A stretch of DNA of 64,000 nucleotides from Escherichia coli (GTDB lineage: Bacteria > Pseudomonadota > Gammaproteobacteria > Enterobacterales > Enterobacteriaceae). The notes under the pieces are model-generated. The model ran no database searches, had not been told where the DNA came from, and saw only the letters and a program-made list of their open reading frames with translations. Positions 34,690 through 42,890 of this stretch are shown piece by piece (position 1 is the first letter of the stretch; every line of letters starts with the position of its first letter). The position numbers were made by a program, and so were the translations under genes. Location of the stretch: assembly GCF_044324785.1 (NCBI RefSeq), contig NZ_CP172127.1. One strand, 5' to 3'.

Positions 34690-36840
34690 TTAACGCCGCC
34701 GACGGCGTGGGGATTTCGTTTTTTCTTTCTTTTTAACTATACCTTCAGGGACTTCCGGTTGCTCTATCGGAAATACCGGTAATGCATCCAGTAGCCGCTT
34801 GCCATAATTTTTGGTCAGCAAGCGTTTGTCGTAAATCACCACTTCGCCCCAGCAACCGTGGCTTCGAATCAGTCGCCCAACCTGCTGAATCAGGTTAAAC
34901 GAGGCGCTCGGCAGGCTTTGCACCTCAAACGGATAGCGGTTGAGGCTTTTCAGCCATTCTCCTTCGGTGATCACCACCGGGCTGTCGATGGGCGGAAAAG
35001 CGATTTTGTGGATATGCACCTGGCTGAGCAGATCGCCTTTCAAATCAAGCCCTTCGGCAAATGACTGCAAGCCCACCAGCACGCTACGCTCACCGTTGGC
35101 AACGCGTTTGCGGTGCAGTTCAACTAAACGGTAACGCGGCTGATCGCCCTGCACCAGCAACATCAGGCGTAAATCCGTCACATAGTCGAGAAACCGCTGC
35201 ATCGCCCGTCCGCTGGCAAACAGTACCAACATACCGAGATGTTTTTTGCTCTCCACCTGTTTACGGAAAAAGGCCGCCATTTCGGCAATGTGCTGCTCTT
35301 CGTTGTCGATGGAAGGCTCAACGCGCATCCGGGGAATAACAATTTTGCCCTGTTCGCAGTGGTTAAAGGGCGAATCCAGCGCCACAAAGCGGTCGCCCGC
35401 TTTCTCTTTCAGCCCGCTCATCTCCTGCAAACGCGAAAAACTGTTCAGCGAACGCAAGGTTGCGGAAGTGACAATAATGTGCGGAATACTGCGCCACAGC
35501 AGCCTTTCCAGCTGATCGCTGACACGAATACCCACGCAGTGAAACCAGAGATGCAGCTGCCCTTCGCGCTCTTCCCGCGTCGCCCATTTGGTCACCGGCG
35601 CACCGGAAGATTGCGCCAGAGACGCCAGCCGCCAGAGTTTGCTTTGCGCCTCGAACATCCCCAGCGCGCGGTTCATCTGCAAAATCAACCGATGCAGACG
35701 TACAATGTCATGGCTGCCGGTTTTCTCACTTAAATCGTTAAGAAATAACTCCGCCAGACCACGCAGCATCTCGGTGAGTTTTGCCAGCCGTTGGCAGATC
35801 TCCAGCACTTCATCAGGCAGTTCGCCCATCGCAAAACGGTGCTCTGCCTCCTGCCCGGCAGGCATGTAGAGGTTGAGAATGTTGTTTAACGAGGCGATAA
35901 GCTCATACAACTCTTCACAATGGGCATTCAAACGCTCGGGGATCGCCAGCGGAGGGATGGTCTTCGGGCGAAACTGCTCCATACAGGTAGCGACCAGTTT
36001 CGTGAACAAGTCCAGCTGTAGCCGATACCAGGGCGCGGTGATTTCGGCGCTCATCTCCAGCGCATCCCGTGCCACATCCGGCAGGTGATGACCTTCGTCC
36101 AGCACCAGCAGTAAATTTTTCGGGTCAGGCAATACGGCTTCGCTTTCCATCGCCGCCATCACCAGCGCATGGTTTGCCACTACAACTTCCGCTTCCTGAA
36201 TTTCCCGACGAGCGACAAAAAACGGGCATTCGCGATAGTAATAACAGTTGCGGTTGAGGCAGCTGGCTTTGTCGGTACTCAACCGACGCCAGAGATCATC
36301 ATCAATGGCGATATCCGTATGATCGCGCAGACCATCCCATTTATAAGTGTCGAGATCGCCCTTCAACTTTGCACAACGCTTTTGCTCTTCCTGATTGTTC
36401 GGCGTCAGCTCGTCGTCAAGAAACGCCAGCAGATCCTGTTGCGTGGGTTCAGTACTGGCAAGCGCTGTCAGATTACGCGGGCAAACGTAGCGCCCACGCC
36501 CAAAAGCGGCAGTGAATTTAAGATCGGGAATGATCTTTTTCAGCAATGGTAAATCTTTGCTGTAGATCTGATCCTGCAACGCCACGTTGGCGGTACTCAC
36601 CACCAACGTTTTTTGCTCTTCGCGGGCAATGGCGATGCCGGGAATCAAATAGGAGAGCGTTTTCCCAACGCCGGTGGGTGCTTCAATCGCCAGATGCCGC
36701 CCTTCTTCTCCGGCCAGCGTTTTGGCGACGTCCGCAATCATCTGCCGCTGCGGCGCACGGGGAATAAAGTCGGGGATCTGTTCCTGAAGCGCCTTATACC
36801 AGGCGGCAATTTGCGCTTTAAGCGCGGCGGTTAATGCCAT
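34690..36840 (-). CDS. dinG: ATP-dependent DNA helicase DinG
   Basis: 716 aa; Walker A APTGVGKT; DEGH box; Fe-S cluster cysteines. Confidence 0.9.
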   Translation of the reverse strand: MALTAALKAQIAAWYKALQEQIPDFIPRAPQRQMIADVAKTLAGEEGRHLAIEAPTGVGKTLSYLIPGIAIAREEQKTLVVSTANVALQDQIYSKDLPLLKKIIPDLKFTAAFGRGRYVCPRNLTALASTEPTQQDLLAFLDDELTPNNQEEQKRCAKLKGDLDTYKWDGLRDHTDIAIDDDLWRRLSTDKASCLNRNCYYYRECPFFVARREIQEAEVVVANHALVMAAMESEAVLPDPKNLLLVLDEGHHLPDVARDALEMSAEITAPWYRLQLDLFTKLVATCMEQFRPKTIPPLAIPERLNAHCEELYELIASLNNILNLYMPAGQEAEHRFAMGELPDEVLEICQRLAKLTEMLRGLAELFLNDLSEKTGSHDIVRLHRLILQMNRALGMFEAQSKLWRLASLAQSSGAPVTKWATREEREGQLHLWFHCVGIRVSDQLERLLWRSIPHIIVTSATLRSLNSFSRLQEMSGLKEKAGDRFVALDSPFNHCEQGKIVIPRMRVEPSIDNEEQHIAEMAAFFRKQVESKKHLGMLVLFASGRAMQRFLDYVTDLRLMLLVQGDQPRYRLVELHRKRVANGERSVLVGLQSFAEGLDLKGDLLSQVHIHKIAFPPIDSPVVITEGEWLKSLNRYPFEVQSLPSASFNLIQQVGRLIRSHGCWGEVVIYDKRLLTKNYGKRLLDALPVFPIEQPEVPEGIVKKKEKTKSPRRRRR

Positions 36841-36854
36841 GAGAAAACCTGAAA

Positions 36855-36874
36855 TACTGTATAAACAGCCAATA
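36855..36874. promoter_or_regulatory. LexA (SOS) box of dinG, asymmetric type
   Basis: tactgtataaacagccaata immediately upstream of the dinG start; CTG...CAG half-sites with non-canonical spacing. Confidence 0.6.
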
Positions 36875-37010
36875 TTGTGGCATTTTTCGGTTTTCAGGGG
36901 TAATGGTTTTTCTGTTTCTGGAAAGCGGCTCGCAATAACGTTTTCTGGAAGTGAGATTTTCCCGCAGCAGAAGAAACATCATTGCGTAGTAAAAGACAAT
37001 GCACGCAGGC

Positions 37011-37292
37011 TTATTGCGCTGGTGGCCATTGCAGGGCGGTATGCAAAACACGCAGTACCGAGAGCGTATCGCCCTCCACTTGGTAGATCAGCACATAATG
37101 CGGTCTGACAACGGCTTCATGAGTGCCAGCGACTCGTCCGGCCCGATACATCTGCGGGCGTTCACAAACCTGTTCCGCAATGGCTTCAAATTGATTATCA
37201 AGGGCAATTGCCGCTTGCGGATTATCTTTACTGATGTATACCATGATTTGCTCCCTGTCAGACAGGGACATTGGCTTCCATTCCAGACGCAT
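37011..37292 (-). CDS. RelE/ParE-family toxin (ParE-like), 93 aa
   Basis: Pattern typical of ParE/RelE-fold toxins (YISKDNPQAA ... YVLIYQVEGDTLSVLRVLHTALQWP); start ATG overlaps the upstream stop (TAATG). Confidence 0.7.
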   Translation of the reverse strand: MRLEWKPMSLSDREQIMVYISKDNPQAAIALDNQFEAIAEQVCERPQMYRAGRVAGTHEAVVRPHYVLIYQVEGDTLSVLRVLHTALQWPPAQ

Positions 37293-37732
37293 TAATCCCC
37301 CTTCAACAAGGCTTTTTTACGGGCAGCAAATAGACTTTTGGCCTCTTCATGAGAGAGCGCTGGGCGTGGATCGTCAATGGCGGCCTGCACCTGCTCTCGA
37401 AACCAGGCATCATACGCGGCAGCTTCATGAGCTCGTTTTAATGCCTCTGCCCTGTCAGGTCGGGTCGTTTTCTTCTGACCATCCGGGTCGTAATTAGAGG
37501 CGTCGACTTCAAACCGGGCAATACCAACATCTTTCAGGTAGTTGACAACCGTTTCCAGCCGTTTGAACAGGCGGATTTGCCGACTGCGTTGTGCTGCAAG
37601 AGGCCGTTCAGTGTGGCCGTATTTCACGGTCAACGACCAGCCTCCCTGGGTGCCAATAACGTGTGCTGCATCCACTACGCCAGACTCAACCAGTTTATGT
37701 AAGGTTGAGTGATCGATCGTTTCTGGTGCCAT
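37292..37732 (-). CDS. putative antitoxin partner of the ParE-like toxin, atypically long (146 aa), function unknown
   Basis: Coupled to the toxin gene by a 1-nt overlap; AGAGG about 10 nt upstream of the ATG; no confident family assignment by eye. Confidence 0.55.
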   Translation of the reverse strand: MAPETIDHSTLHKLVESGVVDAAHVIGTQGGWSLTVKYGHTERPLAAQRSRQIRLFKRLETVVNYLKDVGIARFEVDASNYDPDGQKKTTRPDRAEALKRAHEAAAYDAWFREQVQAAIDDPRPALSHEEAKSLFAARKKALLKGD

Positions 37733-37768
37733 AATGCGCTAACCTCTTTGTATACAGCATGCAATTTA

Positions 37769-37812
37769 TAATTAAAGATAGCGCAATTAATAATTAAAGA
37801 TAGCGCAATTAA
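37769..37812. repeat. perfect tandem direct repeat, 2 x 22 bp, in the promoter region of the toxin-antitoxin-like operon
   Basis: taattaaagatagcgcaattaa at 37769-37790 and again at 37791-37812, 37-80 bp upstream of the start at 37732; candidate operator. Confidence 0.6.
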
Positions 37813-37909
37813 TAATAAATTGCATTTTTTGATCGTAAATTGTCCAGGGTGAAATTGCGGTAGAAAGAGACTTGTTGCGAAGATGCCGGGCATCGCCCGG
37901 CATAAAAAG

Positions 37910-39271
37910 TTACTGCGCAGCGGCAGGTTTACGCGGACGGCGGCGACGTTGTTGTTCGCCTGCCGGTTTGGCATCGCCGAGACGACGAGACGGTTTTTCT
38001 GCAGGTTTTGCGCTTGCAGATTTTGCACCACCTTCAGCGCGGCGTGGTTGCTGTTGACCGCGACCACCGCCTTGTCCACGACCGCCGCCACGTTGCTGGC
38101 GACCATTCTGGATCGGTTCGGCTTTGATTGACGGGTCCGGCTCATAGCCCGGAATCGCAATGCGCGGGATCTCTTTTTTCAGCAGTTTTTCGATATCACG
38201 CAGCAGTTTGTGTTCATCCACACACACCAGCGATAACGCTTCACCGGTGGCTGCGGCACGACCGGTACGCCCGATACGGTGGACATAATCTTCCGGTACG
38301 TTTGGCAGTTCATAGTTGACCACGTGCGGCAGCTCTTCAATATCCAGGCCGCGCGCAGCGATGTCAGTTGCCACCAGTACACGAATATCGCCCGATTTAA
38401 AATCGGCCAGCGCACGGGTACGCGCACCTTGCGATTTATTACCGTGGATCGCCGCACTGCGGATGCCATCTTTATTGAGCTGTTCAGCCAGATGGTTAGC
38501 GCCATGTTTGGTACGGGTAAACACCAGCACCTGCTGCCAGTTCCCTTTCCCAATCATGTGCGACAGCAATTCGCGTTTGCGTTTCTTATCAACAAAGTGA
38601 ACATGCTGGGTCACCTGATCAGACGCGGTATTGCGGCGTGCCACTTCGATTTCCAGCGGGTTGTGCAGCAGTTTTTCCGCCAGGTTTTTAATATCGTCAG
38701 AGAAAGTGGCGGAGAACAACAGGTTCTGGCGCTTCGCTGGCAGCTTAGTCAACACACGACGGATATCGTGGATAAAGCCCATATCGAGCATGCGGTCAGC
38801 TTCATCGAGGACGAGAATTTCAACCTGATCCAGCTTCACTGCATTCTGATGTTCCAGGTCCAGCAAACGTCCCGGCGTTGCCACCAGCACATCAACGCCA
38901 CCGCGCAGCTTCATCATCTGCGGGTTGATGCTGACGCCACCAAACACCACCAGCGAACGAATGTTCAGGTATTTGCTGTAATCACGGACGTTTTCGCCAA
39001 TCTGCGCCGCCAGTTCACGGGTCGGGGTAAGAATGAGCGCACGTACCGGACGACGCCCTTTGGCGTGCGGCTGGCGAGTGATCAGGTGTTGCAACAGCGG
39101 CAGCGTAAAGCCCGCTGTTTTGCCGGTACCGGTCTGGGCACTGGCCATCAGGTCGCGGCCCTCCAGCACCGCAGGGATCGCCTGCTGCTGAATAGGGGTG
39201 GGTTCACGGTAACCCTGCTCGGCAACGGCGCGCAGGATATCAGGGCTTAAACCCAAAGAATCGAAAGACAT
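37910..39271 (-). CDS. rhlE: ATP-dependent RNA helicase RhlE (DEAD-box)
   Basis: 453 aa; Q motif, Walker [13 protein letters not shown] box, RG-rich C-terminal tail. Confidence 0.9.
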
Positions 39272-39499
39272 AACTACTCCGAACCGCCCCGACCGTTACC
39301 GGTGTAGTTTTCAGGGAGATACTGAAAAGGAAAATGACAAAAACCACAATGTCATGAGGGAGCGGAGTGTAGCAGTTTTTGTGACGCAGCGCATAAATTA
39401 TCCCTGTGACTGGCGTAGCTAAAATTCTTAGCCATACTGGACAACTCCCCTATGGAGTCATAATCTTAATCAATCATTTGATTAAGAATGGACTGTGTG

Positions 39500-42890
<3,391 letters not shown>

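Follow-up and report, generated by a model that had tools for sequence, protein, structure and literature searches.

A probable strain-private 22-bp duplication in the putative promoter-operator of a chromosomal ParC-like/PaaA2-ParE toxin-antitoxin cassette of Escherichia coli

Classical type II toxin-antitoxin modules, such as RK2 parDE, relBE, phd-doc and ccdAB, are autoregulated and show conditional cooperativity. Variations on this scheme have been described for modules with ParE-type toxins. The paaR2-paaA2-parE2 operon of prophage CP-933P in E. coli O157:H7 encodes an antitoxin, PaaA2, that has no DNA-binding domain, and control of the operon is exerted by the CI-like protein PaaR2 (PMC8630535). 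The parDE2 operator of Vibrio cholerae has three sites and receives a defined toxin-antitoxin assembly, binding being decided by how many sites there are and how they are spaced; VcParD2 binds GGTA motifs within 33 bp through its ribbon-helix-helix domain (PMC10776004). The ParC protein of the parABC partition loci of IncP-6 plasmids, for its part, has been termed an auxiliary partition protein (PMC4785139). Here we analyse a 22-bp tandem repeat upstream of a two-gene cassette situated between dinG and rhlE in a 64,000-nt stretch of E. coli DNA (contig NZ_CP172127.1), referred to below as the window. The repeat is probably a duplication private to one strain, lying in the putative promoter-operator of a chromosomal cassette that encodes an antitoxin with ParC-like and PaaA2 parts and a ParE toxin.

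In the preliminary description of this DNA the genes downstream of the repeat were taken for a toxin-antitoxin pair, and profile searches bore this out. The toxin matches Pfam ParE_toxin (E 1.5e-13) and TIGR02385 (37.3 bits, cut-off 27.9), and the antitoxin tail (about residues 100-140) is PaaA2-like, with matches to Pfam PF21217 PaaA2 (residues 104-130, E 4.2e-10) and to the PDB structure 3zbe of PaaA2 (E 2e-4). For comparison, 78 loci were collected from one-genome-per-species contigs with a 20-sequence alignment of the antitoxin family, 69 of them full-length; a homologue of the downstream toxin gene is kept in 62 of the 69. Judged by these profiles, the pair is a type II toxin-antitoxin module of the ParE/RelE toxin superfamily. 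No match to the anti-phage defence models of PADLOC was found for either protein, PHROGs returned matches solely to families of function unknown, and the literature searched contained nothing describing this toxin-antitoxin module.

With paaR2-paaA2-parE2 the module shares a ParE-family toxin and an antitoxin segment homologous to PaaA2 (structures 3zbe and 5cw7). It differs in having no conserved third gene for a regulator, in its putative operator, GCAA-N11-TTGC, in its location, which is not in a prophage, and in the fusion of the PaaA2-like tail to an N-terminal ParC-like domain. No third open reading frame (ORF) was found between rhlE and dinG in the window, and only the two genes are conserved across the 69 loci. 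The N-terminal domain (about residues 4-83) aligns through residues 6-83 with nearly the whole 80-residue NCBIfam profile of ParC (NF041544, E 3.5e-8), at a score of 33 bits that falls well short of the family cut-off of 95. Precomputed Pfam assignments name it PF28031, ParC-like, flagged as weak (E at most 0.001), and the AF2 model of the antitoxin has a predicted local distance difference test (pLDDT) value of 73. Unlike IncP-6 ParC, which it resembles in this alignment and in its Pfam name, the domain stands here in a toxin-antitoxin pair and not beside parAB. Pfam and a fold search recognised no ribbon-helix-helix, helix-turn-helix, AbrB or Phd/YefM fold in it, and in this the module departs from the classical type II systems; it resembles them in having the antitoxin gene first, a palindromic putative operator over the core promoter, and an antitoxin stop codon that overlaps the toxin start, the two co-oriented genes having one base (37292) in common. 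The likeness to V. cholerae parDE2 lies in the ParE-type module and in a promoter with several short repeats at fixed spacing, whereas the two have nothing in common in motif, in spacing (here a 19-bp palindrome and a 22-bp period) or in presumed DNA-binding domain.

The 22-bp unit, taattaaagatagcgcaattaa, occurs twice head-to-tail (37769-37790 and 37791-37812) and is followed by a partial third copy, taataaattgc; from 37760 the plus strand reads tgcaatttat aattaaagat agcgcaatta ataattaaag atagcgcaat taataataaa ttgcat. Tandem Repeats Finder (TRF) reports the array with period 22, 97% matches and a score of 105, the highest of 18 rows for the 64 kb, and our own scan placed the longest exact tandem run of the window at the same site, where 27 positions in a row, starting at 37768, match at period 22. 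Thirty block-shuffled controls that kept the local composition gave maxima of 10-12 matched positions. The surrounding region is very AT-rich, and GCAATT/AATTGC hexamers cluster at the repeat, with five in 98 bp as compared with 0.07 per 100 bp window-wide. Chance does not account for a repeat of this length, and the observation is confirmed as an exact 22-bp tandem duplication with a partial third copy, 37-80 bp upstream of the operon start on the minus strand. Its earlier exclusion as an array of clustered regularly interspaced short palindromic repeats (CRISPR) also holds: the copies are contiguous, with no unique spacers between them, and number only 2.5.

The second full copy was met in the window alone. 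The cassette is present at the dinG-rhlE site in 324 of 5426 complete E. coli genomes, and every listed allele among these is 21-22 nt shorter over the repeat region; when four E. coli alleles were set against the window in a five-way alignment, each proved exactly one 22-bp unit short. A search with 116 nt that have the repeat at their centre gave no full-length match in one piece, the three best matches each consisting of two pieces over 94 nt. Single-unit forms were likewise seen in E. whittamii (locus L005, 99% protein identity) and in all five contigs (L083-L087) whose antitoxin is identical to that of the window; about 20,000 blocks of the assembly collection list this protein. The exact duplication junction, GATAGCGCAATTAATAATTAAAGATAGCGCAATTAATAAT, had no match (0) in metagenome contigs, and in 70 homologous upstream regions exact tandem runs do not go beyond 12 positions except in the window, with its 27. 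Copy-number variation among strains, raised in the preliminary description, did not materialise: the orthologues examined, in E. coli and beyond, all have one unit fewer and the window alone differs, which is not the pattern of a variable-number tandem repeat. On the strength of these alignments, the extra unit is a strain-private duplication.

What is conserved instead is an inverted repeat. The 19-bp palindrome GCRA-N11-TYGC precedes the antitoxin gene in 54 of the 69 full-length loci, with constant spacing, in Gamma-, Beta- and Alphaproteobacteria. Its distance from the start codon is 48-77 nt in 53 of these 54 loci and 139 nt in the remaining one (L029); in the window it is 91 nt, that is, 69 + 22. 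Upstream DNA (10.8 kb) contains 53 matches to the motif and the flanks (208 kb) contain 27; in the upstream DNA the palindrome is about 80-fold above the base-frequency expectation of about 0.7. Anchored on the palindrome, 50 unique upstream regions give the consensus TtGCAAtctA.tATtgaTTGC.ta.cat, with unconserved flanks. The palindrome spans a -35-like hexamer and the spacer, and a -10-like hexamer follows directly. A conserved palindrome lying over the core promoter is a feature of autoregulated toxin-antitoxin operators. The placing of the repeat in a promoter region with an operator-like element is supported by this arrangement.

In the window the repeat falls in the stretch bounded by the rhlE terminator and the start codon of the antitoxin gene, and it is in this stretch that the promoter of the operon must lie. 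The predicted operator core is designated O1 and the native downstream half-site O2 (Table 1). The coding strand of the ancestral Escherichia form reads TGCAATTTATTATTAATTGC-GCTATCTTTA-ATTATAAATTGCA, the TTGC of O2 standing exactly 22 bp past that of O1; O2 and the right half of O1 are thus 22 bp apart in the ancestral form and 44 bp apart in the window. The 22-bp period (about two helical turns) is native, which means that the ancestral state already amounted to about 1.5 units. A half-site at exactly +22 occurs in seven enterobacterial loci and a Klebsiella plasmid, the spacing being kept in loci of Escherichia, Pantoea, Serratia, Xenorhabdus, Photorhabdus and Erwinia as well as on that plasmid. 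At 16-17 nt past the -35-like hexamer, the homologues have TAGCAT, TACGAT, TATCAT, TACAAT or TATAAT, and Escherichia has TATCTT, of which the duplication has placed a second copy at 37775-37780, with no -35 partner. A protein bound at O1 would cover either of the two promoter candidates listed in Table 1. Ahead of the palindrome, the coding strand has two more left-type motifs, GCAATTTCA (37850-37858) and ACAATTTAC (37835-37843), which other E. coli alleles keep as GCAATTT; these may be an extension of the operator or part of the TTTACG -35 candidate.

Table 1. Positions of the repeat, the putative control elements and the genes in the window
Feature	Position	Strand	Basis
Tandem array, 2.5 copies of the 22-bp unit	37761-37816		TRF, direct reading and own scan
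O1, 19-bp palindrome GCAATTTATTATTAATTGC (GCAATT-N7-AATTGC), conserved predicted operator core	37805-37823		GCRA-N11-TYGC in 54/69 loci
Extra AATTGC half-site made by the duplication, 22 bp from the right half of O1	37783-37788		Absent from orthologous loci
O2, native AATTGC half-site (TATAAATTGCA)	37761-37766		Conserved 22-bp spacing
-35-like ATGCAA, left half of O1	37820-37825	-	Homologue consensus TtGCAA; TTGCAA in most homologues
-10-like TATCTT, 17 nt after the -35-like hexamer	37797-37802	-	Hexamers at the same offset in homologues; predicted
Alternative promoter candidate TTTACG-16-TATTAT, -10 in the centre of O1	37812-37839	-	Consensus scan, 9/12
Shine-Dalgarno-like AGAGG, 10 nt before ATG	37743-37747	-	Read from the sequence
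Antitoxin gene, 146 aa, ATG at 37732	37292-37732	-	Pfam PaaA2, PDB, NCBIfam ParC
ParE/RelE-family toxin gene, 93 aa	37011-37292	-	Pfam ParE_toxin, TIGR02385
Toxin-antitoxin cassette, 942 bp, between dinG and the rhlE terminator	36940-37881	-	BLAST against K-12-type locus: homology stops at 36939, restarts at 37882
rhlE terminator hairpin, upstream limit of the promoter region	37883-37903	-	9-bp perfect inverted repeat, 3-nt loop; common to K-12
dinG	34690-36840	-	ORF listing
rhlE	37910-39271	-	ORF listing

These observations bear on the proposal made for the repeat at the outset, namely that the operator has the exact 22-bp direct repeats as its functional units, and that two copies are its normal form for conditional autorepression. 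Such an operator would have a precedent in the three repeats of V. cholerae parDE2 (PMC10776004), and a spacing of 22 bp between half-sites is in fact a native trait of the operators in enterobacteria. The second full copy, however, is missing from every orthologous locus examined, the long exact run of 27 positions is peculiar to one of 70 upstream regions, and the element conserved across proteobacterial classes is the inverted repeat over the core promoter. An exact tandem repeat as the expected form of the operator did not stand up to these comparisons, and we regard this account as highly improbable. The tandem repeat itself is a private mutation in a control region of a conventional kind.

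The right-type half-sites ATTATTAATTGC and ATTATAAATTGC form a direct repeat with 11 of 12 positions matching, and slipped-strand mispairing between them during replication most likely made the duplication. The product of such slippage would be O1, then a copy of its right half with the -10-like TATCTT, then O2, which is the arrangement in the window; an exact match of 22 + 5 nt would be predicted, the extra five being ATTAT. As to its effect on the control region, the duplication leaves intact the upstream promoter elements (the -35-like ATGCAA and the first TATCTT) and the downstream ribosome-binding context with the Shine-Dalgarno sequence AGAGG, lengthens the distance from operator core to start codon by 22 bp, and adds, besides the second -10-like copy, a third right-type half-site in phase on the same face of the DNA. 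By analogy with autoregulated type II modules, we suppose that a dimer of the N-terminal ParC-like domain of the antitoxin binds the palindrome O1 and occludes RNA polymerase, and that additional antitoxin or toxin-antitoxin units, possibly bridged by toxin, would be brought in by whichever half-sites lie downstream. An extra in-phase site would then be expected to raise occupancy; autorepression would most likely become stronger or be re-tuned, and not be lost.

Several points weigh against a private duplication that matters for the control of this operon. The strict palindrome is missing from 15 of the 69 loci; the -35 and -10 hexamers of E. coli implied by homology are weak (7/12), and TTTACG-16-TATTAT scores better; the duplication could be an assembly error; and, if genuine, it could be selectively neutral. 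On a rival reading it is one or other of these, a neutral passenger or an artefact of sequencing or assembly, and leaves regulation unaffected; in favour of this are its occurrence in the window sequence alone and the integrity of the promoter elements and ribosome-binding context noted above. Set against neutrality is that a conserved half-site and the -10-like hexamer are doubled and the operator core is shifted by 22 bp, so that an effect is plausible; it would also be unusual for an artefact to yield an exact unit that is in phase and has native repeats at its ends. Neither argument is decisive. The unit has its boundaries at native direct repeats spaced by 22 bp, as a genuine slippage event would leave them. 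A neutral or artefactual duplication appears to us rather unlikely.

Another possibility is that the duplication acts at the RNA level, by placing an additional anti-Shine-Dalgarno segment in the leader and so lowering translation. The unit contains GCGCTATCTTT (37771-37782 and 37793-37804), which is complementary, with a 3-nt bulge, to AAAGAGGTTAGCGC (37736-37749), where the Shine-Dalgarno sequence lies, and candidate leaders folded with ViennaRNA contain this stem and reach -12 to -14 kcal/mol with the duplication as opposed to -6 to -6.6 without it. Nevertheless, E. coli alleles have uncompensated changes in the 5' arm (GCTCTATCTTT, GCACTATATTT) with the partner unchanged, and covariation lends the stem no support; whether the GCGCTATCTTT segment is transcribed depends on where transcription starts; and an Rfam scan of 36800-38000 at E values up to 1 gave no match. 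We consider this explanation improbable, and a change at the level of the operator DNA is preferred.

If the palindrome is the operator, the question arises of what would bind it. A nucleoid or global regulator of the host, such as H-NS, Fis or IHF, might bind an AT-rich region like this in place of the module's antitoxin, in whose N-terminal domain no DNA-binding fold was recognised. The distribution of the motif suggests otherwise. GCAA-N11-TTGC travels with the module over Gamma-, Beta- and Alphaproteobacteria and plasmids (196 plasmids carry the antitoxin family), and around it the antitoxin and toxin genes alone are conserved, the other flanking genes being unrelated. Among homologues that are further removed, one on a Polaromonas plasmid has both half-sites changed symmetrically, to CCAA-N11-TTGG followed by TATAAT, and those of Xanthomonas and Methylocystis have unrelated palindromes at the same position.

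The same motif also precedes stand-alone ParC-like genes without the PaaA2 tail, which were found on Aeromonas and Raoultella plasmids. Four of the five inspected have GCAAG-N9-TTTGC at 74-75 nt before the start codon, with constant half-sites and a varying centre; an annotated RelE/ParE toxin gene lies downstream in three of the five, in two of these three with a small antitoxin-like gene in between. Since the motif accompanies both the fused modules and the stand-alone genes, its link appears to be with the ParC-like domain, and not with the host or the PaaA2/ParE parts. The joint travel of motif and module, its presence before the stand-alone genes and the symmetric Polaromonas variant all point to a dimeric binder encoded by the module, and we give very little credence to binding by a host regulator in place of the antitoxin.

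On this basis we tentatively propose, with slightly less than even confidence, that the ParC-like domain (PF28031) may be an operator-recognition domain that binds GCAA-N11-TTGC as a dimer. It would supply the regulatory function in a mobile and widely distributed ParE toxin-antitoxin family, where it is either fused to a PaaA2-type antitoxin or encoded by a separate first gene, as on the Aeromonas plasmids; the modules often lie beside Xer-type recombination sites. Were this so, the window strain would be a natural variant with three in-phase right-type half-sites as compared with two, and would offer a ready-made test of whether the number of sites and their 22-bp spacing set the level of repression.

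Beyond the repeat itself, the analysis defines a conserved putative promoter-operator of a large toxin-antitoxin family (>900 homologues), one that is undescribed in the literature searched and whose antitoxin N-terminal domain is unlike the standard DNA-binding folds of antitoxins. The putative operator motif can be given precisely, as GCAA-N11-TTGC with a half-site at +22, and the one-unit and two-unit alleles form a natural pair for direct tests of autoregulation and of the rules of site spacing. This by-product, a defined putative operator together with a candidate new operator-binding domain, is in our view of more interest than the repeat.

The separate ParC-like genes of the small Aeromonas and Raoultella plasmids (L090 4237-5525, L096 401-1037, L097 401-1022 and L089 915-2105) directly precede a small gene of RelB/DinJ or TraY type and a RelE/ParE toxin gene or, on one plasmid, a gene for an NYN-domain protein. 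The layout of separate ParC-like gene, antitoxin and toxin parallels that of PaaR2-PaaA2-ParE2.

Sequences resembling Xer sites (dif/cer-like) were seen 113-147 nt before the antitoxin start codon, ahead of the operator, in many homologous loci (L006, L007, L009, L015, L017, L020, L045, L065, L073, L089-L092 and L094), an example from the Aeromonas plasmids being GTGCGCATAAGGGGGCGTTACGTTAAA. Two Photorhabdus loci (L014 and L070) have near-identical 31-mers flanking the module on both sides. Together, the Xer-like sites and flanking 31-mers suggest mobility of the kind known for dif modules. No relic of a Xer site was found upstream of the cassette in the window.

All relevant genes of the window are on the minus strand, and the cassette occupies the place of ybiA and of a spacer containing a repetitive extragenic palindromic (REP) element in E. 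coli K-12, as judged from the K-12 annotation and BLAST. The dinG-rhlE spacer has alternative occupants, ybiA (encoding an N-glycosidase) with REP-like sequence in K-12-type genomes as opposed to the toxin-antitoxin cassette, and the present comparison documents the latter. Over its length the cassette is 93.7% identical to that of E. whittamii. On the dinG side, 239 nt (36701-36939) are 100% identical to K-12, whereas on the rhlE-cecR side (38000-41000) identity to complete E. coli genomes does not exceed 98.2%, and the 3' end of rhlE is only 93% identical to K-12. A divergent Escherichia lineage may lie behind this contrast between the flanks, or recombination may have had one of its boundaries at the cassette.
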